Below, piece after piece: positions 19,363 to 53,634 of a stretch of 64,000 nt of DNA. Position 1 is the stretch's first letter. The number at the start of each line of letters is the position of its first letter. The DNA is from an uncultured Alphaproteobacteria bacterium. Its GTDB lineage: Bacteria > Pseudomonadota > Alphaproteobacteria > HIMB59 > GCA-002718135. The translations under genes were made by a program, and so were the position numbers. A model generated the notes under the pieces. The model searched no databases, was not told where the DNA came from, and saw nothing but the letters and a program-made list of their open reading frames with translations. Location of the stretch: NCBI GenBank assembly GCA_902621165.1, contig CACNKX010000001.1, forward strand, positions 44,839 to 108,838. Reading direction: 5' to 3'.

Positions 19363-19370
19363 AATTAACT

Positions 19371-21158: not shown

Positions 21159-21186
21159 TTAATTAAATTTAAATTTATATAATCTT

Positions 21187-27741: not shown

Positions 27742-27765
27742 AAAAAAAGGGGGCTTGATGCCCCC
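27742..27765 (-). terminator. Intrinsic terminator/attenuator hairpin between the binding-protein and permease genes
   Basis: Minus strand reads GGGGGC-ATCAA-GCCCCC followed by TTTTTTT, starting 9 nt after the binding-protein stop. Confidence 0.7.
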
Positions 27766-27773
27766 ATATTATT

Positions 27774-28805: not shown

Positions 28806-28906
28806 TCCTCCTTAAATTTATTTTAATGTAAGCAGAATTAGAACTTAAATCAACAAAAATAAAATAAAGTATTTATTTATAATTATATTGATTATACTAT
28901 TGTCGC
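28806..28906. promoter_or_regulatory. Divergent promoter region between the CUT2 binding-protein operon and uxuA (inferred)
   Basis: 101-nt AT-rich spacer between divergent genes. No specific operator recognised. Confidence 0.35.
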
Positions 28907-31133: not shown

Positions 31134-31134
31134 C

Positions 31135-37483: not shown

Positions 37484-37494
37484 GATTAAATATT

Positions 37495-38523: not shown

Positions 38524-39605
38524 TAATTATTTTTTTTTGATACAGACATGCCATTCTCTTCAAAAAGATGAACTGAATCTCTTTTAAAACGAAGATATAA
38601 TTCTTCTCCCTTATTAATTTTATATTGCCCGGTATGATGAACAATTAATTGTTTTATTCCTTCACCCTGACAATAAAAGTAAGTTTCACTTCCGAGCTGT
38701 TCAGTAAAATCAACATGTACTTTCAAATCTGAATTTTGCTGTTCACAAACTTCTATATGTTCAGGCCTTATCCCAAGAGAATAAGGTGTATTATTTTGTA
38801 AATTTTTATGATTTGTTTGTAAATTCAATGCATCTGAAACTAAATTAAATGAACCAGACTTATCAATTGCATTAACTTTTATAAAATTCATTTTTGGAGA
38901 TCCAATGAAACCAGCTACAAAAATATCACTGGGATTATTATATAAATCAAGTGGTGCTCCTGCTTGTGCAACATAACCATTATTTAAAACTACTATTTGA
39001 TCAGCTAATGTCATTGCTTCAACTTGATCATGTGTAACATAAATCATTGTACCACCAATTTTTTCATGAAGTGCTGATAATTCTTTTCTCATTGTTACTC
39101 TTAACTCAGCATCAAGATTAGATAAGGGCTCATCAAACAAAAAGGCTTTTGGATCTCTAACTATTGCTCTTCCAATAGCTACTCTTTGTCTTTGACCACC
39201 AGAAAGTGCTTTTGGTTTTCTTTGAAGATACTCTTCAATTTGTAAAAGTTTAGCTGCGCTATTAACTTTTTCTTCAATTGTTTTTTTATCAATTTTTAAA
39301 TTTTCCAATGCAAAGGCCATATTTTTAAAAACAGACATGTGAGGATACAAAGCATATGATTGAAAAACCATAGCTAAACCTCTTTCTGAAGCGGGTATAT
39401 TACTTACTTCATTTCCGTCGATTAAAATTTCTCCTGATGTAATTCTTTCTAATCCAGCAATAATTCTTAATAATGTTGACTTACCACATCCAGAGGGGCC
39501 GACTAAAACTAGAAATTTTCCACTTTCAACTTTCAAATCAACTCCATGAATTACTTCTGTTTGATCATAACTTTTAAAAATGTCCTTTAATATGATTTCA
39601 GTCAT
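38523..39605 (-). CDS. Carbohydrate ABC transporter ATP-binding protein (MalK/UgpC-like, CUT1)
   Basis: Walker A GPSGCGKST, signature LSGGQRQRVAIGRA, and a C-terminal TOBE-like regulatory domain. 360 aa. Confidence 0.9.
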   Translation of the reverse strand: MTEIILKDIFKSYDQTEVIHGVDLKVESGKFLVLVGPSGCGKSTLLRIIAGLERITSGEILIDGNEVSNIPASERGLAMVFQSYALYPHMSVFKNMAFALENLKIDKKTIEEKVNSAAKLLQIEEYLQRKPKALSGGQRQRVAIGRAIVRDPKAFLFDEPLSNLDAELRVTMRKELSALHEKIGGTMIYVTHDQVEAMTLADQIVVLNNGYVAQAGAPLDLYNNPSDIFVAGFIGSPKMNFIKVNAIDKSGSFNLVSDALNLQTNHKNLQNNTPYSLGIRPEHIEVCEQQNSDLKVHVDFTEQLGSETYFYCQGEGIKQLIVHHTGQYKINKGEELYLRFKRDSVHLFEENGMSVSKKNN

Positions 39606-40615
39606 CTATCTCTTCTCATTATTGCTTTGTCAGGGTCAGCATGTTGTAAGTGTATAGGCGGCATCCCATTCAAGATTTTTTTTATATCATTCATCATCAT
39701 AACTCTTATATTTTTATATGAATAATCTAAAGCACCTGCAACATGTGAAGTAAATAAAATATTAGATTTTTTTCTAAAATTTGAATCTGCTGGCACAGGC
39801 TCGACTGGATATACATCTATAGCTGCTCTAAAATATTCATTTTCAGCAAGTTCAATAAATTCGTCAAAATCAACAACCTCCGCTCTACTGACTAGAATCA
39901 CTGAACTATTTTTTTTAATTAATTTTAATTTATCTTTACTAATAAATCCTTCATTTTCAGTAGTAACTCCAGCTAATATGAATATAAATTTATTGTTAGA
40001 TAATAAATCATCAATCGATACAGGGTTTACACCCTGGCTTTCTAAGTATTCATTAGATAACCATGGATCAAATACTGAAATTTTACAGTTAAATGGTTTT
40101 AACAAAGGAAGTAAACTTTTTGCTAAATTTCCAAACCCAATTAACCCAACATTTGAGTTAAAAAGTGTATAAGCAAATTTATTTTCTTTAATTCCATATT
40201 GCTCTTCAGAATTTAAAAATTTTTTATAAACTCCCAAAACATTTCTAGAAAGTGAGATTGCGTAACCTATACAAGCTTCAGCAACAGCAGGAGCCATGGC
40301 AGGTGCAGCTGATAAAACATAAATACCTCTTCTATGTGCTTCATGATAATCAATATTCGGTTCCCAATTTGCTTTGACATTTATAATTGCTTTAATTTTT
40401 TTTGATTTATCTAAACGTTCTTTAGGCATAGCAGTCTGTCCAACTAATATTTCAATTTCTTCAATATTTTTATCTACAAGTTCATCAGGAGCTCGACTAC
40501 CAAAGTGATAGATTAAATTAGATATTTTTTCTAATTCAGTCTTAACATCATTGGTAAAAACCATTTCTTCATTTCTTGGATAAGGATCAAAAAAAATTAG
40601 AGGTTTGTCTTGCAT
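39602..40615 (-). CDS. D-isomer-specific 2-hydroxyacid dehydrogenase family protein
   Basis: NAD motif VGLIGFGNLAKS plus the C-terminal FTSHVAG. I prefer the ATG at 40615 (MQDKPLIFF), a TAATG overlap with the permease stop. The longer track ORF (to 40726) would overlap the permease by 112 nt. Confidence 0.8.
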   Translation of the reverse strand: MQDKPLIFFDPYPRNEEMVFTNDVKTELEKISNLIYHFGSRAPDELVDKNIEEIEILVGQTAMPKERLDKSKKIKAIINVKANWEPNIDYHEAHRRGIYVLSAAPAMAPAVAEACIGYAISLSRNVLGVYKKFLNSEEQYGIKENKFAYTLFNSNVGLIGFGNLAKSLLPLLKPFNCKISVFDPWLSNEYLESQGVNPVSIDDLLSNNKFIFILAGVTTENEGFISKDKLKLIKKNSSVILVSRAEVVDFDEFIELAENEYFRAAIDVYPVEPVPADSNFRKKSNILFTSHVAGALDYSYKNIRVMMMNDIKKILNGMPPIHLQHADPDKAIMRRDR

Positions 40616-41679
40616 TATTTCATACCTGTACTTGCTATTCCTGTTGTTATAAATTTTTGTAAGTAAGCAAATATAATTGCTATAGGTAATAAAGTTACCA
40701 TAGTCATTGATAATACATAATTCCACTGACTAGTAAGTTCTCCATGAAATGCGTTTAATCCAATTTGCAATGTATAAACTTCACTTTTTGATAAAACTAT
40801 TAAAGGCCATAAGAAATCATTCCATCTCCACATTATGGAAAAAATTGCTAAAACTGCAATAGCAGGTATAGATAAAGGTAGAACAACTCGCCAATAAATT
40901 GCCCATTCACTTGCGTGATCCATTCTTGCTGCTTCTATAAGCTCTCTAGGCAATGTAAGCATATATTGACGAAGTAAAAAAACTCCTGTTGGTGTTGCGG
41001 CACCTGGAAGAATTACACCCCATAATGAATTTATCATTCCAAAGTTTGCAACAACATAAAAAACTGGAACCAAAATTATCGTTAATGGAATTAATAATGT
41101 ACCTATAACAAAAACAAGTGCAAAATTTTTCCCTCTAAACTCATATATAGAAAGTGCATATGCTGCCATTGAATTTATTATTAACGTTATTATTGTTGCT
41201 ACAACAGTAATGAAAGTTGAGTTTTTGAAATAAAGTAAAAAATCATACTTTCTTAAAGGATCAACATAGTTTTGCCACTGAATTTTAAATTCTCTAATTT
41301 TTTCTCTTTTATCAATCGGTACTTTTACTGTTTCTCCTGGGTTTAGAGGATCAACCATTTTAGCATTAATTCCAATTCTTTTAATTTGTGCTAACTGCTT
41401 TACTGAACCATCTTCTTGTGTCACATTAAAAATTGGTAAGGGTTTATCGTATCCTTCAACATCAACTTGAATTTGAGAAAGTGGTAAAATTGTTGGAGGA
41501 TATTCTTGTATACCTGCTAATGTCTTTAATGAAGATAATCCTAACCACACAACAGGACCAAACATTAAAAGAACACCTAGAAATAAATAAAAATAAGAAA
41601 AATAATCTGTCCAATGATATTTATTTTTATATCTTTTTTTTGTAGCAATTTTTATTATTCTTGAAGTTGTTTCAGACAT
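40615..41679 (-). CDS. Carbohydrate ABC transporter permease (CUT1, MalG/UgpE-like)
   Basis: Polytopic. EAA-loop region ELIEAARMDHASEWAIYWRVVLPL. Confidence 0.88.
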   Translation of the reverse strand: MSETTSRIIKIATKKRYKNKYHWTDYFSYFYLFLGVLLMFGPVVWLGLSSLKTLAGIQEYPPTILPLSQIQVDVEGYDKPLPIFNVTQEDGSVKQLAQIKRIGINAKMVDPLNPGETVKVPIDKREKIREFKIQWQNYVDPLRKYDFLLYFKNSTFITVVATIITLIINSMAAYALSIYEFRGKNFALVFVIGTLLIPLTIILVPVFYVVANFGMINSLWGVILPGAATPTGVFLLRQYMLTLPRELIEAARMDHASEWAIYWRVVLPLSIPAIAVLAIFSIMWRWNDFLWPLIVLSKSEVYTLQIGLNAFHGELTSQWNYVLSMTMVTLLPIAIIFAYLQKFITTGIASTGMK

Positions 41680-41680
41680 A

Positions 41681-42712
41681 TTAGATTTCTTGATGTTTAC
41701 TTTCTTTATTTCGACTGAAATATAATTGCATAAGTGTTAAAAATAAAAGTACAACACCGAGAACCATAGATGCGGCGGCTGCAAGACCAAAATTTTGAAC
41801 AGATCCAGATGAAGCAAATCCTGTGGTAAAAATATATTGAACAATCAATGATGTAGATGTTCCAGGCCCTCCACCAGTTAAAACATATATTTCATCAAAT
41901 GTTTGAACACCTTTTATTGAGGCAAGAATAAATACAACTAATAAATTTGGCATTAGAAGAGGTAGAGTTATTCGAAAGAAAATTCTTTCTCGGCTAGTTC
42001 CATCCATTTCGGCTGCCTCATATAAATTTGGAGGTATTGCTTGAAGACCCGCTAATACAATCAGAGTGTAAAAACCCATATGGGCCCATATTGATACAAA
42101 GATTACAGATGCCATAGCCCATGATGGATCCGTTAAAAATGATACTTTGTCTCCACCATAAGATTCAATTATAGCATTGAAAGCTCCATTTTTTAGCAGT
42201 ATCCATTGCCAAATCAAACCAACAACAACTGGTGACAATAAAACAGGGAAAAAAAATACCGATCTAAAAAAGCCTCTGCCAATAATTTTCTTATTTAATA
42301 TCACGGCAGTCAAAACCGAAAAGAAAATCATTAAGCCAACTTGAAAAACAACAAAGAATATAGTGTTATAAACTCCTCTCCAAAAAAAATCTTCTGTACA
42401 TGTATTTGGGTTTAAATAACTCTCACAATCAAATAACTGATCATATTGTTTTGTTGTAGGAAGTTCTCTCTCAGCAAATAACAGTTCGTCACCAGATGAT
42501 AATGAAAAGAAAAAGTTTGCACCAAGAGGGATTATTACAAATAATCCAAAAAAAATTAAATTTGGAAGCAAAAAAATATATGGCATATTTCTTACACCAA
42601 TAATTTTTTGAATTGGCCACATGATTAAATCAATAGCATGCATTAAAAATGCAAAGGGAATGTTTAAAATTCTAAGGAAAAAAATTTTTGTTTGATTTCT
42701 AATATTTTCCAT
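41681..42712 (-). CDS. Carbohydrate ABC transporter permease (CUT1, MalF/UgpA-like)
   Basis: EAA loop YEAAEMDGTSRERIFFRITLPLL. 343 aa. Confidence 0.88.
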   Translation of the reverse strand: MENIRNQTKIFFLRILNIPFAFLMHAIDLIMWPIQKIIGVRNMPYIFLLPNLIFFGLFVIIPLGANFFFSLSSGDELLFAERELPTTKQYDQLFDCESYLNPNTCTEDFFWRGVYNTIFFVVFQVGLMIFFSVLTAVILNKKIIGRGFFRSVFFFPVLLSPVVVGLIWQWILLKNGAFNAIIESYGGDKVSFLTDPSWAMASVIFVSIWAHMGFYTLIVLAGLQAIPPNLYEAAEMDGTSRERIFFRITLPLLMPNLLVVFILASIKGVQTFDEIYVLTGGGPGTSTSLIVQYIFTTGFASSGSVQNFGLAAAASMVLGVVLLFLTLMQLYFSRNKESKHQEI

Positions 42713-42723
42713 TAAATGATTTC

Positions 42724-42753
42724 GAAAAAAAGCTGCTCAAAATGAGCAGCTTT
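42724..42753 (-). terminator. Intrinsic terminator/attenuator hairpin between the binding-protein and permease genes
   Basis: Minus strand reads AAAGCTGCTC-ATTTT-GAGCAGCTTT followed by TTTTTC, 24 nt after the binding-protein stop. Confidence 0.7.
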
Positions 42754-42777
42754 ATATTATTATTATTTTGGATGTAA

Positions 42778-44058
42778 TTATCCGCCGTATTTTTCTTTAA
42801 GTTGTTTTTCAACATCTTCATCCATACGCGTCCAAGCTTCTTCCATTGTCATTTCACCAACAATAGCTTGTCCTAATCTTGAGATAATTGCGTTAAACAT
42901 TATACGGTTGTCAACGTGTGCCTGAAGATCAAAAGCGACTTGATCAATAGTTGGCACTGCGCCAGCAAAAGTGTTTAATGCATGTTTTGCGTTTGGATCA
43001 TCAGTTTGATAGTCAACTTGTAGATCTAAGTGTCCAGGGATAGCAAGAACTTGACCAATAAAACTACTTAGTTGTTCTTTACTAGAAAGATAATCCATTA
43101 CCTTTCCAACAGCTGGATTAGCATTGAATGCTAATAGTGCATTTCCACCTGGCATTCCAGTACATGCAGCAGGACCACATGGAGCTGGTACAGCCCACCA
43201 ATCAAAATCATCTCCTACTTCATTTGCAAATCTTCCAATTTGCCATGAACCACTCATCATGAAAACTACCTCAGCAGCATTCCACCAATCATTTGGAGCA
43301 TGATATTTAGATCCTGAAACTGATCCCCAAAGATCTTTACTCATTGTACCTGCTTGGTGCCAGTCATAAAGCATTTGAGTCATAGCTTTTAATCCATCAT
43401 CAACTAATTTTGGATCACCATTTGAATCAAAATATTTCGCACCCATAGAAATCGCAGGGCCTGATACACGGTGACCTGATCTATCCCAAGCCATTGGTAT
43501 AGGAGTACCTGTTTTTTCTGCTACTTCAATTGAAACTGCTGCCCATTCTTCCCAAGTTGCACCAGGGCCTAATAGATCTACACCAGCTTGTTCAAATAGA
43601 GTTTTATTTACATATGGACCAGTAACGGTCATTGTAGAATGGAAACCATGAATTGAAGTTGTGTCTCCAGGCTTACGATACCAATTTAAAAAAGGACCGA
43701 AGCTTTTTTCATAGTAACTTGGATCAGCTACATAAGGCGTAATATCAGCATAATATTTGTTTAATCCACCAAGATCAGTAACACGAGCAATGTCAGGACC
43801 TTCACCAGCAGCAAGCTGGATAGGTAGAGTGTTCATTATTGCATCATATGGTACAATATCTAAAATTACATTTATATCTGGATTAGCTGCATTAAACTCA
43901 TCAATTTGTGCTGCAATTGGCACATTTTCTTTGTCTCCATCTCCATACCACATAATACGTACATCTGTGGCAGCAAAAGAAACTGCAGAAATTAAAGTTA
44001 ATGAGAATGAAACTAAAGCTACAGATATTGCTTTTAAAATAAACTTAAAGTTCATCAT
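42778..44058 (-). CDS. Extracellular solute-binding protein family 1 (CUT1 carbohydrate-binding protein)
   Basis: Signal peptide ...LTLISAVSFAA. 426 aa, typical SBP_bac_1 size and composition. GGAGGA SD upstream. Visibly higher G+C than flanking genes. Confidence 0.85.
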   Translation of the reverse strand: MMNFKFILKAISVALVSFSLTLISAVSFAATDVRIMWYGDGDKENVPIAAQIDEFNAANPDINVILDIVPYDAIMNTLPIQLAAGEGPDIARVTDLGGLNKYYADITPYVADPSYYEKSFGPFLNWYRKPGDTTSIHGFHSTMTVTGPYVNKTLFEQAGVDLLGPGATWEEWAAVSIEVAEKTGTPIPMAWDRSGHRVSGPAISMGAKYFDSNGDPKLVDDGLKAMTQMLYDWHQAGTMSKDLWGSVSGSKYHAPNDWWNAAEVVFMMSGSWQIGRFANEVGDDFDWWAVPAPCGPAACTGMPGGNALLAFNANPAVGKVMDYLSSKEQLSSFIGQVLAIPGHLDLQVDYQTDDPNAKHALNTFAGAVPTIDQVAFDLQAHVDNRIMFNAIISRLGQAIVGEMTMEEAWTRMDEDVEKQLKEKYGG

Positions 44059-44193: not shown

Positions 44194-45567
44194 ATGATTG
44201 GTTATTTAGCATTAGCAAGAAATACATTTGATATAAATTATGCTTTAGATAATAAAAAAAAGTTTGAAAAATTTATAGATATTTTAGACATTAAATACTC
44301 ACATTTTAAAGAATTAATTACAGATGATGAAACAGGAAAAAAAGCTATTAGATATTTTAAAAAACTAAATTGTAGCAAATATATTATTGCTCAAACAACT
44401 TTCACTGATGCAAAATTTATAACAAGTTTTGCTAAAACATTTAATAAACCAATACATTTAATAAGTTTTAAAGAGCCGAGAACAGGTAAACGGTTAAGAT
44501 TGAACTCTTTATGTGGTGTAAATCTTGCTATGCATTCTTTAGTTAAATTAAAATGTAAGCCAGAATTTTCAATATTTATTAATAATAAATTATTCGAAAT
44601 GGAAAAAATTAATAATTTTTTAAAAAATAAAAAAATTTTAAAAAATAATACATTGAAAAAAATAAAAAATTCTAAAAAGAAAGATGACATTATTTTTTCA
44701 AAAAAAAAGAATTTAGGACTTGTTGGAAAAAGACCAGATGGATTTTTTACCTGTGATTATGATAATAGAGAAATAGAAAAAAAATTAAATTATAGTCTTA
44801 AGAAAATTAAATTAGAAACTTTGTTTAAAATTTCTAAAAATGTTAGCACTAAAGATATTTCAAAAACTAAAAATCAAATAAAAAAAGATTTGAAATCAGT
44901 CTCTAAGTTGAATGCAAATGAATTAAATAAAAGTATTTCAATTTTTCATGGGTTAGAAAAAATAAAAAATGATAACAAAATTGATACTTTTGCAATTAAG
45001 TGTTGGCCTGAAATGTTTACTCAATTTGGATGTGCATCATGTGGTCCAATGGCTATGATGAATGAAAAGGGAGTTAGCAGTGCATGTGAAGCTGATGTAT
45101 TAGGAAGTATAAGTTGCGATATTTTAAATAAGATAAATAACAGACCGTCACTTTTAGTAGATGTTGTTGATTGTGATCCCAAAACTGATACTTTAGTTTT
45201 TTGGCATTGTGGATTAGCTCCAATTAGTATGGCAAAAAAAAATACAGCAAGTGCAACTGTACATTCTAATAGAAGGAAAGCATTGCTACATGATTTTGCA
45301 TTTAGACCTGGAAAAATAACAATATTTAGAGTTTCAAAATCAGAAAACAAATTAAAATTTATTGTTATTAAAGGTGAAGTTTTAGATAAAAAAAATTCAT
45401 TTTCAGGTACTTCGGGTGTTGTGAGATTTCAAACAAATACCTATCAAAAATTAGTTAGATTATTCACGTCTGGTGTCGAACATCATCTAGCATTCACATA
45501 TGGAGATGTATATTCAGAAATAAAAAAACTAAGTGCGCAATTAAATATTCCAATTTACACAACATGA
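44194..45567 (+). CDS. L-fucose/D-arabinose isomerase family protein (FucI-like) with a K/N-rich insertion
   Basis: The C-terminal half, KCWPEMF...CGPMAMMNEKGVSSACEADVLGSIS...VFWHCG...GVEHHLAFTYGD, is typical of the Fucose_iso/Arabinose_iso fold. A low-complexity KN-rich segment spans about aa 125-175. Confidence 0.65.
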   Translation: MIGYLALARNTFDINYALDNKKKFEKFIDILDIKYSHFKELITDDETGKKAIRYFKKLNCSKYIIAQTTFTDAKFITSFAKTFNKPIHLISFKEPRTGKRLRLNSLCGVNLAMHSLVKLKCKPEFSIFINNKLFEMEKINNFLKNKKILKNNTLKKIKNSKKKDDIIFSKKKNLGLVGKRPDGFFTCDYDNREIEKKLNYSLKKIKLETLFKISKNVSTKDISKTKNQIKKDLKSVSKLNANELNKSISIFHGLEKIKNDNKIDTFAIKCWPEMFTQFGCASCGPMAMMNEKGVSSACEADVLGSISCDILNKINNRPSLLVDVVDCDPKTDTLVFWHCGLAPISMAKKNTASATVHSNRRKALLHDFAFRPGKITIFRVSKSENKLKFIVIKGEVLDKKNSFSGTSGVVRFQTNTYQKLVRLFTSGVEHHLAFTYGDVYSEIKKLSAQLNIPIYTT

Positions 45568-46652
45568 AAACGAAAATTAAATATGGAGTTGTTGGAAGTG
45601 GACTAATGGGTTGTGAACATATTTCAAATATTAATCTTATAGATTCAGCTGAAGTAGTTGCCATCTCAGACAGTAATGAAAATTCAATAAATAAAGCTAA
45701 AAATCTTATCTCAAATGATATTAAAATCTATTCAAATAATAATGAAATTTTTAAAAATAATGAAGTGGATGCTTTTATTATTTCGACTCCCAATTTTACC
45801 CATCATGAAATTATTAAAGAAGCGTTAAAAACAAAAAAACATTTATTAATTGAAAAACCCTTATGTACAAAATTAGAAGATTGTCTTGAAATTAAAAAAT
45901 TATCAACTTCATATCCATCAGTAATATGGGTGGCTATGGAGTATAGGTACATGCCACCTGTTCAAAAAATGATCCAAGAAATAGATAGTAATAAAATTGG
46001 TAAGCTTAAAATGCTTTCAATTCGTGAACATAGATTTCCATTTCTCAAAAAAGTAGATGATTGGAATAGATTCCAAATAAACACCGGTGGAACATTAGTA
46101 GAAAAATGCTGTCATTTTTTTGATTTAATGCGCCTAATTACAAATAGTGAAGTTACACAAGTATATGCAAGTGGTGACCAAAGTGTAAATCATCTTAATG
46201 AAAATTATAATGGAAAAGTTCCTGATATATTGGACAATGCATTTGTAATTTTAGATTTTAAAAATGGAATAAGAAGTTCTTTAGAACTTTGTATGTTTGC
46301 AGAAAATTCAGAAATGCAAGAAGAGCTATGTGTTGTTGGAGATAAGGGTAAAATAGAAACAGGTGTGCCAGCTGATGCATCTGGAAAAAACTCTTCAGAA
46401 GTTAGAATAGGTTTAAGAAACTCTAAAAACGCAATTAAAGAATTAGTTGAGGTAGATAAAAAAATTTTATCAGCTGGGCAACATCATGGATCGACTTATT
46501 ATCAACATTTAGAATTTATTAAAGCAATTAATAATAATTTAAAACCACAAGTTTCTATAAACGATGGTCTTCATGCAGTGGCTATTGGAGAAGCAGCAGA
46601 GAAATCAATAAAAGAAAATCGTGTGGTTAAGATGAGTGAGTTTAATCGTTAA
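45564..46652 (+). CDS. Gfo/Idh/MocA-family oxidoreductase
   Basis: YGVVGSGLMGCEH and IEKPLC. ATGA overlap with the isomerase gene. Confidence 0.85.
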   Translation: MKTKIKYGVVGSGLMGCEHISNINLIDSAEVVAISDSNENSINKAKNLISNDIKIYSNNNEIFKNNEVDAFIISTPNFTHHEIIKEALKTKKHLLIEKPLCTKLEDCLEIKKLSTSYPSVIWVAMEYRYMPPVQKMIQEIDSNKIGKLKMLSIREHRFPFLKKVDDWNRFQINTGGTLVEKCCHFFDLMRLITNSEVTQVYASGDQSVNHLNENYNGKVPDILDNAFVILDFKNGIRSSLELCMFAENSEMQEELCVVGDKGKIETGVPADASGKNSSEVRIGLRNSKNAIKELVEVDKKILSAGQHHGSTYYQHLEFIKAINNNLKPQVSINDGLHAVAIGEAAEKSIKENRVVKMSEFNR

Positions 46653-47577
46653 AATTTTCAAAAAATTTATTTGTTTTATCAATTATAAAATTACTTACTC
46701 TAACGTTTGATTCAGCAGTTACACCTGCAATATGAGGTGTTAAGATGCAATTCATATCATTTGTAATGTTGTTATAAAATGCTTCATTTACTGGTTCATT
46801 TTCAAAAACATCTAATGCGAAACCAGAGATATATTTATTTTTATAAGCATCAATTAAGTCTTTCTCATTGATGACGCCACCCCTAGAAGAATTAATTATA
46901 ATTGGTTGTTTTTTCATTTTAATAAAAGCTTGTCTGTCAAATAGATACTTTGTTTCATTATTTAATGGGACATGAATAGAAATTATGTCAGCCAAATTAA
47001 GAATTTCATCAAATGAAACTTTCTTAACATTTTCTGTCTCCATTTGTTTCAAAGTTATAAAAGGATCATATGCAATACAGCTAACATCAAAAACATTTAC
47101 AAGATTTAAAACTTTTTTTGAAATATCCCCAAAACCTATTAGACCAAGAGTCTTTCCTTTAAGTTCTTTTGTAACAATTGATGTCCTTGGCCATTTTCCT
47201 TGTCGAGTTTGTTCTTTAATAATGTGAGTTTTTTTTAATAATGTAAGAGAAGAATTCACAACGTATTCTGCAACAGAGTCAGAATTCATACCTGTTGCTG
47301 GCTGAACAATGATATTATTTTTTTTACAGTATTCTGTATCTATATTATCAAGACCAACACCTAATCTTCCTATAAACTTTAAATTTGACGCATTTATTAA
47401 AATTTTCTTATCTAAACTTGTTTTATTCCTTACGATGATGCCATCAAATTTCTGAATTTCTCTTTCTAAAAAATCTTTATTTTGCCAGGCATCTTTTTTA
47501 TAAATTACATCGAATTTTTTATTTATATTTTGCAAAGATTGTGAATCTATAAATTCTGTAATTAAAATTTTTGTCAT
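46642..47577 (-). CDS. D-3-phosphoglycerate-dehydrogenase-like D-2-hydroxyacid dehydrogenase
   Basis: GKTLGLIGFGDISKKV NAD motif, INSSRGGVI, and the catalytic His context LTPHIAGVT. Confidence 0.8.
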   Translation of the reverse strand: MTKILITEFIDSQSLQNINKKFDVIYKKDAWQNKDFLEREIQKFDGIIVRNKTSLDKKILINASNLKFIGRLGVGLDNIDTEYCKKNNIIVQPATGMNSDSVAEYVVNSSLTLLKKTHIIKEQTRQGKWPRTSIVTKELKGKTLGLIGFGDISKKVLNLVNVFDVSCIAYDPFITLKQMETENVKKVSFDEILNLADIISIHVPLNNETKYLFDRQAFIKMKKQPIIINSSRGGVINEKDLIDAYKNKYISGFALDVFENEPVNEAFYNNITNDMNCILTPHIAGVTAESNVRVSNFIIDKTNKFFENFND

Positions 47578-48482
47578 TTAATTTTTCTAATTTTTAATTT
47601 TTTTAAAAACTTTTTTACGTTGTTTAAATTTGGTATTGAATATATGCCTCCAGCTTTCATGCATTTTAAAGTTGCAGTAGCTGCTGCCAATTGAATACTT
47701 TGAGAGTTTGATTTATTTAATGATAGAGCTGTTGCAAAAGCACCATGAAAAACATCTCCTGCACAATTCGTTTCAACTGTTTTTACTTTTGGAACATTAC
47801 AATGATATAATGAGTTATTTTCAACCCAATAAACACCTTTTGATCCCATAGTAACTGCAACAAATTTATTTGTTTCATTGAATATTTGAAAAAGAGCCTT
47901 TTGCATATTGATGTTTTTTTTATAAGTTTTCAAACCTTCTTCAGAAAATATAGGGTGCGAAGCTTTGTGAACAATTTCAGAAATTTTATTAGAATTTTTA
48001 AAATTATCTAGATCAGCAACACATTTAATATTTTTTTTATTGGTATTAATAGCAATATAAGAGGCCATATCTATCCATCTCATATCTATTGAATAAATAT
48101 CCCTTTTTTTAAAATTTAATTTGGGTATTTTCTTATAATCAAGTAATTTTGGATCATTGTATGCTGCTAGTAATCTTTCACCTTTTGTATCCTCAATTAC
48201 AAAGCTTTGCGAAGACTGACATTTTTTAATAAAAATTGATTTACTAGTATTAATAGAAAATTTTTTTAATTCATTTTTTAAAAAGACTGATGAATCATCA
48301 TCTCCAAATTTTCCTATGAATTTTGATTCAGAACCCAAAATTTTTGCAGTAAATGCCGATACTGCTGCTGAACCACCTAATCTTTTATCAATACCTTTAG
48401 ATAAAACTTTAATTGGTTTTTTTGGAAATTTATTAATCCTACTTATGTAATCTGTAAATATTGATCCTGCGCAAATGATCAT
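47574..48482 (-). CDS. PfkB-family carbohydrate kinase
   Basis: N-terminal GGSAAVSA (the GG motif) and C-terminal TNCAGDVFHGAFA (a variant of the DTxGAGD anion-hole motif). Confidence 0.75.
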   Translation of the reverse strand: MIICAGSIFTDYISRINKFPKKPIKVLSKGIDKRLGGSAAVSAFTAKILGSESKFIGKFGDDDSSVFLKNELKKFSINTSKSIFIKKCQSSQSFVIEDTKGERLLAAYNDPKLLDYKKIPKLNFKKRDIYSIDMRWIDMASYIAINTNKKNIKCVADLDNFKNSNKISEIVHKASHPIFSEEGLKTYKKNINMQKALFQIFNETNKFVAVTMGSKGVYWVENNSLYHCNVPKVKTVETNCAGDVFHGAFATALSLNKSNSQSIQLAAATATLKCMKAGGIYSIPNLNNVKKFLKKLKIRKIK

Positions 48483-48492
48483 AAAATATTAA

Positions 48493-49062
48493 TTAAAGGT
48501 ATTTAACTTTACCAATAAACTTTCTAAACCTATCTCTTATAGTTATAGGATTGAGTGGAATGGGATCAATTTTAACATTTCCAGAATTGATCTTTGAAAT
48601 TATTACATATGAATTATCTTTATCATCAATGGCTTTGTTCAATTCATTAACTGTTTCCTCGCCAGAACATTCAATCACATTTTTGCAGCCAGCTCCTAAT
48701 GCAACATCCTTTAAGGAAGTTTTCTCATCAGTAAATGTTCGTTGATCTCCTGTTGATCCATAAGAACCATTATCAATTATCAATAAAGTATAGTTTGATG
48801 GCGCTCTATTACCTATTGTTGCTAGGGTATTCATATTCATTAAAACTGATCCATCACCATCTATACTAATAACGTGTTTATTTTGGGACAGTGCTAAGCC
48901 TAAGCCAATAGAAGATGATAAGCCCATACTGCCTAACATATAAAAAAAATTTGGTTGATCACTAATTTTATATAATTCTTGAGATGGAAGACCTATATTA
49001 CAAATAACTAAGTTATCTTTAAGAATATTTTGTACCTTATTTAACAAATCAAAACGGTTCAT
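48493..49062 (-). CDS. comE: ThDP-dependent decarboxylase, beta subunit (sulfopyruvate/phosphonopyruvate decarboxylase ComE-type)
   Basis: ThDP/Mg motif IDGDGSVLMNMNTLATIG...LLIIDNGSYGSTGDQ. 189 aa with only the PP-binding domain. 4-nt overlap with the alpha subunit gene. Confidence 0.65.
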   Translation of the reverse strand: MNRFDLLNKVQNILKDNLVICNIGLPSQELYKISDQPNFFYMLGSMGLSSSIGLGLALSQNKHVISIDGDGSVLMNMNTLATIGNRAPSNYTLLIIDNGSYGSTGDQRTFTDEKTSLKDVALGAGCKNVIECSGEETVNELNKAIDDKDNSYVIISKINSGNVKIDPIPLNPITIRDRFRKFIGKVKYL

Positions 49063-49559
49063 TTATCATCTTTCATTAAATTGAAGTCACATAAAATAGC
49101 TACTGGTGATTCAACAACTTTGGCATGTTTGCTAAATGTTGAAATTTTATCTAATTCTTTTTCAGAAGAGCAATGCAAAATAGGTATTCTCAACGTTTGT
49201 AAAATATCTTCAGTAATCTTCGCCATTCCACCTTGCGCTCCTACTGGCTCACCAGGTGTACCCCTGTAACTAATTAAAAAAACAACAGGCATTTGATATA
49301 ATTGTAATAGAGAAACAATTGCATTCACTGAATTTCCAATCCCTGTATTCTGCATCATTATACACGGGAATTTATTTCCTAAATAAGCTCCAGCACAAAT
49401 ACCCATACCTTCTTCCTCTCTTGGTACAGCCGAATAATAAATATCTTTATCATTTTCAAGAATATCAATCATGTTGGCTAATAACTTACAAGGAACACTT
49501 AAGTAAAAATCTACTCCACCTTTTTTTAAATTATCTATGATTTTTTTACTGATTTTCAT
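49059..49559 (-). CDS. comD: ThDP-dependent decarboxylase, alpha subunit (ComD-type, pyrimidine-binding domain)
   Basis: VDFYLSVPCKLL, PREEEGMGICAGAYLG and MQNTGIGNSVNAIVSL follow ComD and the N-terminal half of phosphonopyruvate decarboxylases. 166 aa. Confidence 0.65.
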   Translation of the reverse strand: MKISKKIIDNLKKGGVDFYLSVPCKLLANMIDILENDKDIYYSAVPREEEGMGICAGAYLGNKFPCIMMQNTGIGNSVNAIVSLLQLYQMPVVFLISYRGTPGEPVGAQGGMAKITEDILQTLRIPILHCSSEKELDKISTFSKHAKVVESPVAILCDFNLMKDDK

Positions 49560-49605
49560 TTATGCGGATGTCTATAGATATAAAATTATAAAACAATAAA
49601 TTAAT

Positions 49606-50658
49606 TTATTTAAAATCATTTCTTAATTTTATTTTTGTATTTGAATTATATGTTTCGCCTACTTTTAATATAGTTGATGGAAAATTTGGTTGATTAATAG
49701 CATCTGGAAAAATTTGCGTCTCTAGACACATACCATATTGTAATCCATAATTTCGATTATGTTTGCCATGATATGAATCTTTCATCATATTACCAGTATA
49801 AAATTGTATTCCAGGTTGATCAGTCGAGTATTCAACTCCCATACCAGTAATATTACTGTAGATGGCAGCTATAGATTGATCAATAGAATGATCTTTGAGA
49901 ACATAATTGTGATCAATACCACCGCCATCTAAAAAAGATTTATTTATTTCAAATGAATTATTAAGATCATATTTCGTATTAACTACATCGAATAATTTAC
50001 CAGTAGGAATTGATCCCTCATCAGTTTCGCAAATTTGATTAGATGATATTCTTACAACATGGTCAGTAATATTTTTATAATTATCTTTATGGCCATGGAA
50101 ATTCCAATAGTTATGATTAGTCATATTAACAATAGTATCTTGATCTGTAGTAGCATTAAAGGAAATTAGAATTTCGTTATTATTATTAAGTTCGTAAATA
50201 GTTTTACAATTTAGGTTGCCTGGATAATTTTCTTCTAAATGTTTAGACTGGTAAGTGAGCTCTACTTTTATACTTTGGCTCGTTTTTTTAATATCGGCTA
50301 TTTTCCAAATCTTTTTATTGAAACCTATCTCTCCACCATGAAGATGATCAGGTTCAGTATTAGAATATAAATTATATTCTTTCCCATTAAGAGTAAATTT
50401 ACTTTGCCCTATTCTATTACAAACTCTTCCAATAATTGAATTGAAATATCCATGAGCTTCCAAGCAATCATCTAAATTACCATAACCTAATAAAACATCC
50501 TCTGTTTCAGAAACATTCGAAGAAATTGGAATACAAACTTCACTCATATAACCACCATAAGTATAAAAACTAAAACTATAATTGTTTGAGTTAATAATAT
50601 TAACTATGTCAATATCTAAGCCTTTATCATTTTGAAGTTTGGCAATTTTATATTCCAT
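49606..50658 (-). CDS. Aldose 1-epimerase (galactose-mutarotase fold)
   Basis: GRVCNRI, HLHGG, TNHNYWNF and CLETQ.FPDA motifs. 350 aa. Confidence 0.85.
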   Translation of the reverse strand: MEYKIAKLQNDKGLDIDIVNIINSNNYSFSFYTYGGYMSEVCIPISSNVSETEDVLLGYGNLDDCLEAHGYFNSIIGRVCNRIGQSKFTLNGKEYNLYSNTEPDHLHGGEIGFNKKIWKIADIKKTSQSIKVELTYQSKHLEENYPGNLNCKTIYELNNNNEILISFNATTDQDTIVNMTNHNYWNFHGHKDNYKNITDHVVRISSNQICETDEGSIPTGKLFDVVNTKYDLNNSFEINKSFLDGGGIDHNYVLKDHSIDQSIAAIYSNITGMGVEYSTDQPGIQFYTGNMMKDSYHGKHNRNYGLQYGMCLETQIFPDAINQPNFPSTILKVGETYNSNTKIKLRNDFK

Positions 50659-51557
50659 TATGTTTTCCTTAATCTTTGAAAATTATTTTTTCTTTGTTGA
50701 AGATAAATGATTAATCCACCTAAAACTATGAAAAAAGCACCTGGCAAAAGTTGATCAACTGGCCATTCTGCAAAAAATATCCAACCTAAAATAAGTGCAA
50801 AAAATATCTCGATATAATCAAATGGCATAATTTTACTAAGTTCTGCTTTTCTAGCACCATATATTAAAAGTAAAGTTCCAGATCCTCCTGCAATCCCCAT
50901 TATACAAACTACTAAGAAATCATTTATACTTTTGAAATTTTCCCACATACCAAAAAACACCACTAACATACATGCAACTATGATTGTCCCTGTTTGACCA
51001 TACAAGTTGATAAGTGGTGAAGGAACATGATCTTCAAAACTTAAGGATGTTACCCTTGCTAATGAATATCCAAAAGCAGCAAGTATAGGAAGTAATAACA
51101 TATAATTAAAGTCTGATGACCAAGGTTGCATAATTAAAACGATACCTACAAAACCAGAAATTACTGCACTCATTTTGTACCAACCAAATTTTTCACCTAA
51201 TAAAGGAATAGCAAGAAGGGTGACCATCATGGGCCCAGTGTATTCCATGGTAGCGACTAAAGCAAAAGGTAAGTAAGCATAAGAAGTATAGAGACATAAT
51301 TGAGCCAATGCTACAAATACTCCGCGGAACAATCCTAACTTCCATTGCGTTATTTTTATTTGTCTACCGTTTTGATACCAATCATGTGAAAAATATAAAG
51401 CAATAACACAAGGGATCATTCCAAATAAATTTCTAAAAACAGAAAGTTGAGCTGCTGGATATTCGTTTCGTAAAAACTTTATCGCAATCCCCATACAATC
51501 CAATAAAAACAAACCTGAAAGTGATAATATAACGGCTAAAAATAAATTATTTTTCAT
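50658..51557 (-). CDS. EamA/DMT-superfamily permease
   Basis: 299 aa, about 10 TM helices. 1-nt overlap with the mutarotase start. Confidence 0.7.
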   Translation of the reverse strand: MKNNLFLAVILSLSGLFLLDCMGIAIKFLRNEYPAAQLSVFRNLFGMIPCVIALYFSHDWYQNGRQIKITQWKLGLFRGVFVALAQLCLYTSYAYLPFALVATMEYTGPMMVTLLAIPLLGEKFGWYKMSAVISGFVGIVLIMQPWSSDFNYMLLLPILAAFGYSLARVTSLSFEDHVPSPLINLYGQTGTIIVACMLVVFFGMWENFKSINDFLVVCIMGIAGGSGTLLLIYGARKAELSKIMPFDYIEIFFALILGWIFFAEWPVDQLLPGAFFIVLGGLIIYLQQRKNNFQRLRKT

Positions 51558-51570
51558 TAATCATAATCTA

Positions 51571-52629
51571 TTATTCTAAAATAATTTCTTTTCCTACTTC
51601 ATGACTTTTATAAATTCCATCTAAAATTTTCATTACTTGTAGAGAGTGTTCAGCCGGAATAGTAACTGGTTGGTCGTTTGCAACAAACTCTGCAAACTCG
51701 ATACATTCTTTGGCATGAGGTTCAATAGTGTCTTTTAAATTTCCTTCAATTTTTTTAGTTATGTGAGTTTGAGAATTGATATCATTTTTTATAATCTCAC
51801 AATTAGGCCAATGCAAACCAGCTTCTCTTCCGTATAACCATACCTGCATATCTTCTATTTTATCTTCTGGTAGTTTATGATGAAGCATCCATGATACTTC
51901 AAGCATCAAGGTTGCACCATTTTTAAACCTAACAAATGCAGCTGCAAAATCTTCAACGTTCATTGCTTTCTTATCGTACTCACCATTGTAACTAAAAGAA
52001 TTTGGCTGCTTTGCTAATTCTGTTTTTGACACACCTGTCACAGAAAGTGGTTCTGGATTGTTCATAAACCAAAGAGTTAAATCTAATACGTGCACCCCTA
52101 TATCAATACAAGGCCCTCCTCCTGAATTTTCTTTTTTTAAAAAACCAAGTGAGACTGGTAAAAAATTTCTTCTTAGCATCCAAGAACGTGCATGATATAT
52201 CGAACCAATTGATTTGGATTGATCTTTTATTAATTGAGAATCTTTTCTAAATCTAAAGTGTTGAGCACACATTAATTTTTTTTTCTTTTGATCTCTTACT
52301 TCAATCATTTTTTTTATTTGTGAGGCATTTGGAGCTAAGGGTTTTTCACATAAAACATCTTTGCCTGCTTGCATTGCTTTAATTGCTAAATCACAATGAT
52401 AGTTATTAGGTGCACAAATATCTATTACATCTATATCTGGATCATTAATCATATCTAAGGGATCAAGATATAATTTTTTTATTTGATTTATATTGCCCCA
52501 ATCTTCAAGAATAGAATTATTTATATCGGAACCTGCTATTAATTCTGCATGTTCTGACATGCGCCAACCAGGTACATGTAACTTTGCAATACCCCCAACG
52601 CCAATAATGCCAACTTTTATTTTACTCAT
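51571..52629 (-). CDS. Gfo/Idh/MocA-family oxidoreductase
   Basis: VGIIGVGGIAKLH, CEKPLA and GGGPCIDIGVHVLD. Confidence 0.85.
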   Translation of the reverse strand: MSKIKVGIIGVGGIAKLHVPGWRMSEHAELIAGSDINNSILEDWGNINQIKKLYLDPLDMINDPDIDVIDICAPNNYHCDLAIKAMQAGKDVLCEKPLAPNASQIKKMIEVRDQKKKKLMCAQHFRFRKDSQLIKDQSKSIGSIYHARSWMLRRNFLPVSLGFLKKENSGGGPCIDIGVHVLDLTLWFMNNPEPLSVTGVSKTELAKQPNSFSYNGEYDKKAMNVEDFAAAFVRFKNGATLMLEVSWMLHHKLPEDKIEDMQVWLYGREAGLHWPNCEIIKNDINSQTHITKKIEGNLKDTIEPHAKECIEFAEFVANDQPVTIPAEHSLQVMKILDGIYKSHEVGKEIILE

Positions 52630-52644
52630 ATTTATATTTTTAAT

Positions 52645-53634
52645 TTAGATATTTATCCATTTTTTTTCTTTTTCTGATTGGTAAATTGATTCCATTATAC
52701 TACTTCTCAATGCTGCTTCTGTAGGAGTAACTAGATTTTTAGTATTGTTATCAATTAATGAATTGAGAAACAAATCAAATGCATGAGGTAATGTTTCTGG
52801 TAAATTTTCTTCTATTCTTTCTATTTTTTTACCCTCCTTATTTTCGTTTATAATTAATTGCTCATTCGTTGTTCTTGCGTGAGCTTTCGTTCCACTCACA
52901 AAAATAGTATAAGGCTGCGCTATATCTATCCATCCCGCAGCAATACTAGCTATCAACCCGCTTTTAAATTTTATTAAAGCTTCTCCACTTTCTTCACAAT
53001 CTGGATATTGATTATATACTTTTGTAAAGGTTGCGCTCACAGACTCAACATCAGAAAAAAACCATAAAAGAAGATCTAAAACATGTGTTCCTAAATCACC
53101 AAAAGCTCCGACTCCTGCAACTTTAGGATCTGTCATCCATTGATAGTTTTTGAAAATATCCCTCATAATACCATCGTGACAATTAATGAGTCGAATTCTT
53201 GAAATTTCGCCAAAATAATTAGCAGTAATTAATTGTTTAAGCTTTATGTAAACAGGGTTGCTTCTCATGAAATATCCAGTTTGAAAAATAATTTTTGAAG
53301 ACTCAATAAGATTTGCCATTTCAAAAGAGTCTTTTTTTCCTATCCCCAAAGGTTTTTCTATAAAACAGTGTTTTTTATTCTCGGTAATTTTTTTAACTAA
53401 TTCATAGTGCAAATTAGTTTCTGAACATACTATAACACCATCTAAATTAGGTTCTTTCAATAAATCAACATAGTTATCATAATTCTTACATTGCAGTTTA
53501 TCAGAGTCACTTTTTGACCTATTCTTGTCTTTGTCCCAAACACCAATACAATTAATTTTAATGTTTGAAATTACCTTAGAAATAAAATTTGGTGTATGAA
53601 TATGAGAGGTTCCAATAAATGCTATATTTTTCAT
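52645..53634 (-). CDS. Gfo/Idh/MocA-family oxidoreductase
   Basis: IAFIGTSHIHTPNF, IEKPLG and GDLGTHVLD. Confidence 0.8.
   Translation of the reverse strand: MKNIAFIGTSHIHTPNFISKVISNIKINCIGVWDKDKNRSKSDSDKLQCKNYDNYVDLLKEPNLDGVIVCSETNLHYELVKKITENKKHCFIEKPLGIGKKDSFEMANLIESSKIIFQTGYFMRSNPVYIKLKQLITANYFGEISRIRLINCHDGIMRDIFKNYQWMTDPKVAGVGAFGDLGTHVLDLLLWFFSDVESVSATFTKVYNQYPDCEESGEALIKFKSGLIASIAAGWIDIAQPYTIFVSGTKAHARTTNEQLIINENKEGKKIERIEENLPETLPHAFDLFLNSLIDNNTKNLVTPTEAALRSSIMESIYQSEKEKKWINI

Follow-up and report, generated by a model that had tools for sequence, protein, structure and literature searches.

Which sugar is broken down, and by what route, by the ten genes that lie between positions 44194 and 53634 of the window, by which we mean the whole 64-kb stretch of DNA studied here (contig CACNKX010000001.1 of an uncultured alphaproteobacterium)? 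An initial annotation had delimited ten open reading frames (ORFs) in this region, all ten of which were recovered by ORF calling with the same coordinates, strands and Pfam families, and had offered a new aldose chain-shortening pathway with organosulfonate metabolism as the alternative. It is the alternative that proves correct in outline, in that a mutarotase, an isomerase and a YihV-like kinase would serve a sulfoquinovose-like sugar and that sulfolactate would be converted to sulfopyruvate and further to sulfoacetaldehyde. The genes from 44194 to 51557 quite probably constitute a streamlined sulfoglycolysis cluster of SAR11, in which a hybrid pathway of sulfo-EMP (sulfo-Embden-Meyerhof-Parnas) type is extended by an SlcC-like sulfolactate dehydrogenase and a ComDE sulfopyruvate decarboxylase. 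Sulfoquinovose (SQ) is an abundant sulfur sugar of algal membranes and SAR11 bacteria are the most numerous bacteria of the ocean. The host of the window is likewise assigned to SAR11 (Pelagibacteraceae) from its sequence, since its isomerase shares 92-98% identity with proteins from many single-cell 'uncultured Alphaproteobacteria AG-...' genomes, including that of Pelagibacteraceae bacterium AG-337-I02, and since its G+C content is about 30%.

The result that is decisive for the identity of the pathway concerns the protein of Gfo/Idh/MocA fold encoded at 45564-46652 on the plus strand, which had been read as an enzyme oxidizing aldoses. Its full-length matches in the PDB are 8QC2 (360.6 bits), 8QC3 (350.2 bits) and 8ZN9 (324 bits), with the next entry at 109 bits, and these best solved relatives (8QC2/8QC8, 8QC3/5/6 and 8ZN9, 324-361 bits) are structures of the characterized SqgA enzymes of Flavobacterium, Arthrobacter and Roseobacter denitrificans, which founded the CAZy family GH188 of NAD+-dependent sulfoquinovosidases (PMC10755693, PMC12780224). 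The window protein shares 48, 47 and 45% identity, respectively, with these three enzymes and has the same two-domain fold with an N-terminal NAD-binding Rossmann domain (PF01408 87.3 bits, PF02894 112.2 bits, PF22725 64.1 bits). Furthermore, the catalytic residues Lys107, Tyr136, Glu189, His193 and His321 of the Arthrobacter enzyme ArSqgA correspond to K98, Y127, E180, H184 and H307 of the window protein, the sulfonate-binding triad Arg166, Leu170 (through its backbone) and Lys172 corresponds to R157, L161 and K163, and E155 likewise falls within the matched set. Since the homology to SqgA is accompanied by retention of all catalytic and sulfonate-binding residues, the gene is predicted to encode a glycosidase that cleaves sulfoquinovosides, i.e. 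an NAD+-dependent sulfoquinovosidase SqgA of family GH188 and not an aldose dehydrogenase. No GH31 glycosidase was found in the window.

Directly upstream, and joined to sqgA by an ATGA start/stop overlap at 45564-45567, lies the gene of an isomerase of 457 aa with a Fucose_iso_C domain (PF02952; 44194-45567, plus strand). The NCBIfam model NF048012, 'sulfoquinovose isomerase SftI', matches its residues 2-453 with an E-value of 6e-85 and 285.6 bits. A sequence search of the PDB gave no solved structure similar to it. For an AlphaFold2 model (pLDDT 86.8, pTM 0.90) Foldseek returned L-arabinose isomerase (AraA, E 7e-20) followed by L-fucose/D-arabinose isomerase (FucI, E 1e-13). Among the residues that are invariant in 20 sequences of the isomerase family, down to 31% identity, are E299, D323, H338 and H431, and their spacing is similar to that of E306, E333, H350 and H450, which we take to be the metal-binding and catalytic set of AraA. 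An hhalign comparison of the family with E. coli AraA produced a low-probability match of 34 residues, which places H430/H431 on AraA H449/H450. The initial annotation had made a catalytic Glu/Asp pair the test of this protein; at the level of motifs a conserved Glu/Asp/His set is there, and these residues may form an AraA-like metal and catalytic site. In all loci of sufficient length sqgA comes after the isomerase gene, more than 60 loci have the isomerase in company of a YihV-like kinase and a class I aldolase, and the family is abundant in marine metagenomes, where several clusters at 90% identity have hundreds of members. From family, modelled fold and company, 44194-45567 appears to encode a sulfoquinovose-sulfofructose isomerase of the SftI/SqvD type with an AraA/FucI fold.

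The remaining six of the eight genes form a tightly packed run on the minus strand, in the order EamA transporter, mutarotase, ComD, ComE, PfkB kinase and 2-hydroxyacid dehydrogenase, and overlap by 1-4 nt (47574-47577, 49059-49062 with 4 nt between comD and comE, and 50658). A scan for promoters and terminators gave a signal no better than that of shuffled sequence. The PfkB kinase (PF00294; 47574-48482) has as its best PDB match the sulfofructose kinase YihV, aligned over the full length (7AG6; 161.5 bits, E 2.8e-46), the entry that follows scoring 100 bits and ribokinases about 60. With E. coli YihV it shares 35% identity across 292 aa (E 3e-59). It is accordingly named here a YihV-like 6-deoxy-6-sulfofructose kinase, as a prediction from homology; the second PfkB protein of the window (KdgK-like, 18466-19362) gave no match to YihV.

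The two halves of the thiamine diphosphate (ThDP) enzyme are encoded by separate adjacent genes on the minus strand, the C-terminal half or beta subunit ComE at 48493-49062 and the N-terminal half or alpha subunit ComD at 49059-49559. Both pass the curated cut-offs for sulfopyruvate decarboxylase, ComD with 161.8 bits against 147.95 for TIGR03845 and ComE with 223.3 bits against 221.5 for TIGR03846, and the model for phosphonopyruvate decarboxylase gives ComE 133.6 bits against a cut-off of 312.5, with ComD likewise far below. The pair at 48493-49559 is thus a predicted ComDE sulfopyruvate decarboxylase and not the decarboxylase of 2-keto-aldonates that had been proposed. We also considered a transketolase-like cleavage of a ketose, by the logic of the sulfo-transketolase (sulfo-TK) pathway, which is ruled out by membership in the POX/ALS-type TPP_enzyme_N/C families and by the ComDE cut-offs passed.

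The 2-hydroxyacid dehydrogenase (46642-47577, 311 aa, Pfam 2-Hacid_dh and 2-Hacid_dh_C) has as its best NCBIfam model that of phosphoglycerate dehydrogenase (PGDH), with 259 bits, below the cut-off, over model positions 1-297 of 525. It lacks an ACT domain and is a short PGDH-like enzyme without regulatory domains. The purified (S)-sulfolactate dehydrogenase SlcC of Chromohalobacter salexigens falls in or beside the PGDH (SERA) clade (PMC6303947), and homologues of the window enzyme with 36-41% identity adjoin SuyB and Ldh_2, or ComDE, in the sulfoquinovose clusters of other bacteria. Family and gene context taken together suggest that it is an SlcC-like dehydrogenase which oxidizes (S)-sulfolactate to sulfopyruvate, and (S)-sulfolactate, being D-configured by the Cahn-Ingold-Prelog rules, should be acceptable to a D-specific 2-hydroxyacid dehydrogenase. 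Elsewhere in the window an Ldh_2 protein (30084-31133, minus strand) scores almost equally as ureidoglycolate dehydrogenase (213.4 bits) and as L-sulfolactate dehydrogenase (212.5 bits), below both cut-offs; it is a possible partner, of the ComC type, for the SlcC-like dehydrogenase.

The mutarotase is a GalM-type Aldose_epim protein (49606-50658; PF01263, 230.7 bits), whose best PDB match is human GALM (214 bits) and which is 22% identical to E. coli YihR. It is probably a sulfoquinovose mutarotase, to judge from its constant position in the SAR11 module and its recurrence in related alphaproteobacterial clusters. The adjoining membrane transporter of the EamA/DMT (drug/metabolite transporter) family (50658-51557, two EamA repeats) may export a sulfonate or sulfite or may import the sugar; its gene is found next to the mutarotase gene in nearly all SAR11 versions, L001 and L029 lacking eamA and L054 lacking the mutarotase, and it has no counterpart in the version of Pseudothioglobus.

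That these genes belong together is borne out by their distribution. Comparison of the window proteins by tblastn with 83 loci holding a relative of the isomerase showed the eight genes of 44194-51557 to be syntenic in about 60 SAR11 single-cell genomes (SAGs) and metagenome-assembled genomes (MAGs), in the order sftI-sqgA converging on the slcC-like gene, kinase, comE, comD, mutarotase and eamA, with protein identities from 98% down to about 51-60% for the most diverged ones, the isomerase, kinase and 2-hydroxyacid dehydrogenase. The grouping exceeds chance. The proposed co-inheritance does not extend to the two Gfo/Idh/MocA genes at 51571-52629 and 52645-53634 (both minus strand), since some SAGs have them and others lack them although the genes on either side are 93-98% identical; they are missing for instance in L009, L018, L022 and L023. 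They constitute a presence/absence cassette between eamA and an Opp-type ABC operon, the first of them (51571-52629) being nearest to the C-glycoside 3-oxidoreductases DgpA (177.7 bits), and are an accessory cassette outside the sulfoquinovose route and not the pathway oxidases they were taken for.

Outside SAR11, Gammaproteobacteria of the Pseudothioglobus type keep the isomerase, sqgA, the PfkB kinase and the 2-hydroxyacid dehydrogenase together with an ABC transporter, ahead of which stand a DeoR regulator and a class I aldolase of the LacD/DeoC family, and have no ComDE near the module. In many Alphaproteobacteria the isomerase, a Gfo-type gene and the PfkB kinase are found again beside an aldolase, the 2-hydroxyacid dehydrogenase frequently being present as well, and dozens of genomes of Hyphomicrobiales, Rhodobacterales and other groups hold the kinase, the aldolase, an SftI-like isomerase and SqgA (or GH31), many of them adding an SlcC-like enzyme along with either SuyB and Ldh_2 or ComDE. 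The fullest set is that of the cultured Actibacterium pelagium JN33 (L154), with a TRAP transporter, DeoR, kinase, aldolase, SftI, SqgA, mutarotase, aldehyde dehydrogenase (ALDH), SlcC-like enzyme and ComDE, in which the ALDH is of the GabD type (636 bits to models of succinate-semialdehyde dehydrogenase). The gene contexts of these relatives connect all conserved genes of the window with the catabolism of sulfoquinovose and supply both of the steps that the window lacks.

Several of these relatives deserve a mention of their own. The complete genome of Pseudothioglobus sp. nBUS_23 (L093, NZ_CP179200.1, 782181-799197) holds a LacD-type aldolase 76% identical to the copy in L049 and a DeoR homologue, and its sister Pseudothioglobus loci have the full set of DeoR, aldolase, sftI, sqgA, kinase and dehydrogenase. 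The same gene order, with aldolases 77-78% identical, is found in contigs binned as Dehalococcoidia SAT215 (L042/L090/L102) and in those of a MAG of the PS1 clade (L077/L092), which are probably mis-binned. In MAGs of Steroidobacteraceae, Parvularculaceae and Caulobacterales (L081 717-15960 and similar) the kinase, the aldolase and the SftI-like isomerase stand beside a possibly SqgH-like GH31 gene that is nearer to YicI than to YihQ, the enzyme of the L081 type scoring 329 bits with the former and 138 bits with the latter. The GH31 of the SAR11 loci of the L004 type is nearest to MalA, and a classical sulfoquinovosidase is not assignable from these matches. L081 also carries a TonB receptor, a glycerol kinase, a GlpD-like oxidase and SuyB-like, Ldh_2 and SlcC-like genes, and is a candidate for a complete sulfoquinovosyl-glycerol locus.

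The route that emerges would begin with the entry of sulfoquinovosyl glycerol (SQGro) or free SQ into the cell, where SqgA would cleave the glycoside by way of a transient NAD+-dependent oxidation at C3 and the GalM-type mutarotase would provide the right anomer. The metal-dependent SftI/SqvD-type isomerase would then convert SQ to 6-deoxy-6-sulfofructose, which the YihV-like kinase would phosphorylate to sulfofructose-1-phosphate, and an aldolase would split the latter into dihydroxyacetone phosphate (DHAP) and (S)-sulfolactaldehyde. Oxidation of (S)-sulfolactaldehyde by an aldehyde dehydrogenase would give (S)-sulfolactate, from which the SlcC-like dehydrogenase would form sulfopyruvate and ComDE sulfoacetaldehyde and CO2. 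Finally Xsc, encoded in the core genome, would convert sulfoacetaldehyde to acetyl phosphate and sulfite, and AprAB would dispose of the sulfite, so that with DHAP, acetyl phosphate, CO2 and sulfite as end products SQ would be completely mineralized in one cell. Glycoside cleavage, isomerization, phosphorylation and decarboxylation rest on homology and conserved residues, the mutarotase and SlcC-like steps are suggested by family and gene context, and the aldolase, aldehyde dehydrogenase and Xsc/AprAB steps would depend on enzymes encoded outside the window. Parts of this frame have precedents, since the combination of PF01263, PF02952 and PF00294 is a described class of hybrid sulfo-EMP1/2 clusters (PMC10665668), SAR11 representatives are reported to contain the pathway of 2,3-dihydroxypropane-1-sulfonate (DHPS) including a step by a GabD-type sulfolactaldehyde dehydrogenase (PMC11131964), and xsc and suyAB belong to the core or near-core gene set of Pelagibacteraceae, where aprAB has been proposed to remove sulfite (PMC12636525). 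The absence of xsc recorded by the initial annotation therefore holds for the window but is filled at the level of the family, and that of a lactonase is equally real and without consequence, a lactonase not being needed for the sulfoquinovose route.

A number of observations nevertheless weigh against this route. The 285.6 bits of the isomerase fall below the 700-bit equivalog cut-off of NF048012, and by the rule of NCBI it is by sequence a distant member of the SftI family and not an equivalog; ComE clears the cut-off of TIGR03846 by 1.8 bits only; the assignments of the mutarotase and EamA derive solely from gene context; and Xsc and AprAB are credited to the genome of the window from the family literature (PMC12636525) and not from its own sequence. 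The importer is not nameable either, since three unrelated ABC cassettes alternate upstream of sftI, so that the adjacent cassette varies among SAR11 genomes, and comparison of the binding proteins of the window and of the Pseudothioglobus type with solved ones gave weak generic sugar-binding matches, none of them to a sulfoquinovose-binding protein. Most of all, neither a class I (YihT/LacD) nor a class II (FbaA/SqiA) aldolase is found in the 64-kb window or within 10 kb on either side of the loci of close relatives, as judged by tblastn searches in which YihT, FbaA and two aldolases of the LacD type were the queries and by genome scans with single proteins and alignments, and the alignment-based scan, with one genome per species, found no close homologue of the aldolase in the SAGs of the window lineage. 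Nor is there an ALDH among the annotated ORFs of the window, the related loci not having been searched with an ALDH query, or a YihU-type sulfolactaldehyde reductase by tblastn of the window.

The aldolase gap is the main weakness of the sulfoquinovose reading. It had been noted from the outset and stands for the window lineage, but it does not stand for SAR11 as a whole: a LacD/YihT-family aldolase lies directly upstream of sftI in six SAR11-like loci, five of them SAGs (L026, L095-L097 and L099) and one a MAG contig (L098), at a site that in the window is occupied by a spacer of only 135 bp. E. coli YihT is a distant member of this aldolase family of the relatives (LacD/DeoC, PF01791), and the aldolases of L049 (8982-10004) and L026 (8982-10001) have 8TNF, a 'DUF2090 domain-containing protein', as their nearest structure (276.7 bits), followed by LacD at about 130 and YihT at about 64 bits; a literature search gave no paper describing 8TNF. 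A KdgK/Eda pair in the window (17916-19362) was considered as the missing kinase and aldolase and rejected, as it consists of an ordinary 2-keto-3-deoxygluconate kinase, without similarity to YihV, and a 2-keto-3-deoxy-6-phosphogluconate aldolase. The simplest answer to the gap is a housekeeping aldolase. That SAR11 lineages of this kind, which would have lost or never possessed a dedicated aldolase and ALDH while retaining an intact isomerase, kinase, SlcC-like enzyme and ComDE, pass from sulfofructose or its 1-phosphate to sulfolactate or sulfopyruvate through an undescribed step, or recruit a housekeeping aldolase such that the most abundant marine heterotroph mineralizes SQ completely by itself, strikes us as rather unlikely. 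If true, either would revise the current view of the marine SQ cycle, according to which C3 sulfonates are excreted by primary degraders and taken up by SAR11 as a scavenger.

It may also be asked whether the cluster is one pathway or two modules lying side by side, the sugar part ending in an excreted C3 sulfonate and the SlcC-like enzyme and ComDE taking sulfolactate that is imported or derived from DHPS. SAR11 is indeed an established consumer of DHPS and C3 sulfonates (PMC11131964), Pseudothioglobus has no ComDE near its module, and no sulfolactaldehyde dehydrogenase links the halves in the window. Yet co-inheritance of the 2-hydroxyacid dehydrogenase with the sugar genes extends to loci without ComDE, its gene in SAR11 overlaps that of the kinase within the operon that also holds ComDE and the mutarotase, and in Actibacterium the ALDH gene sits between the halves, which makes two separate modules improbable, even if use in two modules and use as a single route are compatible with each other. 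Quite improbable, in our estimate, is that the aldolase-less lineage has an incomplete or decaying pathway, or that an unrecognized enzyme, such as the 404-aa protein encoded at 35253-36467 or the product of another gene of the left arm, cleaves sulfofructose or its phosphate. The reduction of the aldolase site of sister lineages to a spacer and the recurrence of aldolase-less versions in several SAR11 lineages would fit such a proposal, but decay is in poor agreement with all eight genes being intact and conserved across many SAGs, the 404-aa protein is not a substitute for the aldolase because it occurs beside the aldolase in L026 and is missing from loci of the L028 type, and a housekeeping aldolase is simpler than an unrecognized enzyme. 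Aldose chain shortening, in which an aldose would be oxidized to the aldonate and the 2-keto-aldonate, decarboxylated by the ThDP enzyme to a shorter aldose, isomerized and phosphorylated, is permitted on paper by the inventory of families (Gfo/Idh/MocA, 2-hydroxyacid dehydrogenase, ThDP decarboxylase, FucI-like isomerase and PfkB) and by the lack of a sulfofructose-phosphate aldolase in the window lineage, but is highly improbable, because its oxidizing enzymes are either a glycosidase with sulfonate-binding residues, the sole conserved Gfo gene, or dispensable, because the decarboxylase, kinase and isomerase have specific relatives in sulfo-pathways (sulfopyruvate decarboxylase and sulfofructose kinase for the first two), because the isomerase, kinase and dehydrogenase persist in Pseudothioglobus in company of an aldolase and not of the decarboxylase, and because no lactonase is present and an aldolase would be needed anyway; a sulfosugar version, from sulfogluconate by way of 2-keto-sulfogluconate to 5-sulfo-arabinose, is conceivable.

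Returning to the sulfoglycolysis cluster, its enzyme types are all known, and hybrid sulfo-EMP clusters with SqgA have already been described (PMC10755693, PMC10665668). The closest published systems are the hybrid sulfo-EMP1/2 clusters of Sharma et al. 2023 (PMC10665668), which follow the same route from SQ by way of sulfofructose to sulfofructose-1-phosphate. With yihR/S/V/T/U of E. coli (sulfo-EMP1) and sqvB/sqvD/sqiK/sqiA of Bacillus urumqiensis (sulfo-EMP2) as references, the window combines the PF01263 mutarotase and PF00294 kinase of the EMP1 type with the PF02952 isomerase of the EMP2 and transaldolase/transketolase (TAL/TK) types, and its relatives add a PF01791 class I aldolase that resembles LacD and 8TNF more closely than YihT. 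Unlike these references the cluster of the window contains neither an aldolase nor a sulfolactaldehyde reductase or dehydrogenase, and unlike E. coli it has a GH188 glycosidase instead of the GH31 enzyme YihQ and no transporters of the YihO/YihP type. The SqgA enzymes of Kaur et al. 2023 (PMC10755693) and Ma et al. 2025 (PMC12780224) are likewise found in clusters without a GH31 sulfoquinovosidase, the SAR11 host of the window being the difference. The SlcC/ComC/SuyAB and ComDE/Xsc pathways by which C3 sulfonates are mineralized in Chromohalobacter salexigens, Ruegeria pomeroyi and Paracoccus wurundjeri (PMC12421959) have, as in the window, a PGDH-like (S)-sulfolactate dehydrogenase feeding a desulfonation branch, and the 'tandem' pathway of the same study similarly couples a C3-sulfonate branch to sulfosugar cleavage in one organism. 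That branch proceeds through ComC and SuyAB, whereas the window would use ComDE followed by an unlinked Xsc, with ComDE fused into the operon of kinase and mutarotase.

Among cultured or named relatives, Actibacterium pelagium JN33, Tropicimonas sp. IMCC6043 (L166) and Shimia (L163) share the kinase, SftI-like isomerase, SqgA, 2-hydroxyacid dehydrogenase and ComDE with the window, at 25-61% identity to its proteins, and unlike the window they also carry DeoR and a LacD-type aldolase. The mutarotase was detected in Actibacterium and Shimia and not in Tropicimonas, and annotation was extended to a TRAP transporter and a GabD-type ALDH in the Actibacterium locus alone, which has both. Sulfoquinovose use by Roseobacter is reportedly the subject of Liu et al. 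2023 (ISME J 17:393), which may cover this Rhodobacterales version.

The host and the gene arrangement of the window appear to be unreported. Full-text literature searches linking sulfoquinovose to SAR11 or Pelagibacter gave no paper describing such a pathway, two reviews of 2026 do not have SAR11 among the SQ degraders they list, a recent stable isotope probing study makes no mention of SAR11 or Thioglobus, and a supplementary list of GH188 members includes a protein of a Pelagibacterales MAG and proteins of Candidatus Thioglobus without comment. The global survey of sqgA in Tara Oceans applied a cut-off of 54% identity to the Roseobacter enzyme RdSqgA (PMC12780224), and the sqgA of the window lineage was probably left uncounted, since its 45% identity to RdSqgA lies below that cut-off. 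The consumers of SQ named at present are Roseobacteraceae, Alteromonadaceae and Oceanospirillaceae, Pelagibacter being regarded as living on short sulfonates further downstream (PMC12780224, PMC13436972), and sulfoquinovose compounds in the ocean are estimated at about 1.5 Pg C per year (PMC13436972). The present genes place the gateway sulfoquinovosidase and the early genes of sulfoglycolysis in part of SAR11 and in the SUP05-related Pseudothioglobus, the SAR11 version being fused to a module from sulfolactate to sulfoacetaldehyde that plugs into the core Xsc of the clade. If they are active, the turnover of SQ in the oligotrophic ocean and its yield of carbon and sulfite would need to be re-attributed. 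The system is thus ecologically notable and, apart from the missing aldolase, biochemically conventional, and it illustrates that a reading at the level of families ('Gfo/Idh/MocA = sugar dehydrogenase') can make a known pathway look like a new one.

As to uptake, a CUT1-type sugar ABC transporter (38523-44058, minus strand) with a substrate-binding protein at 42778-44058, permeases at 41681-42712 and 40615-41679 and an ATPase at 38523-39605 is divergent from sftI across the spacer of 135 bp, and a 2-hydroxyacid dehydrogenase gene (39602-40726, minus strand) is inserted in the block. It is a possible, if uncertain, importer of SQ or SQGro. The site upstream of sftI is occupied in SAR11 by one of three unrelated uptake cassettes, i.e. 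that of the window (33390-44058), with the ABC transporter, two Gfo genes, the 2-hydroxyacid dehydrogenase and an uncharacterized protein, that of the L004 type (L004 1436-9833), with an ABC transporter, the GH31 glycosidase and an uncharacterized protein, and that of the L028 type (L028 3034-9833), with an ABC transporter, a sulfatase, a sulfatase-modifying factor of the FGE (formylglycine-generating enzyme) type and an uncharacterized protein of 618 aa. It looks like a hot spot for the exchange of genes for carbohydrate use. The 404-aa protein at 35253-36467 (minus strand) has no match in Pfam or NCBIfam, carries an N-terminal 'DIHTHLFP' reminiscent of the amidohydrolase superfamily or of uronate isomerases, and also occurs in the GH31-type cassette at 54-56% identity.

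Further away, just past the Opp-type ABC operon, lies a gene for a PehA-like phosphoric/sulfuric ester hydrolase (60079-61614, plus strand; 412.9 bits against a cut-off of 900). On the other side of the cluster, an island at 17916-32565 with a GH29 fucosidase, Amidohydro_2, an MR_MLE dehydratase, an aldo-keto reductase, a ribose-type ABC transporter, UxuA, an enzyme of the mannitol dehydrogenase family, KdgK and Eda looks like a set for the use of L-fucose and hexuronates.

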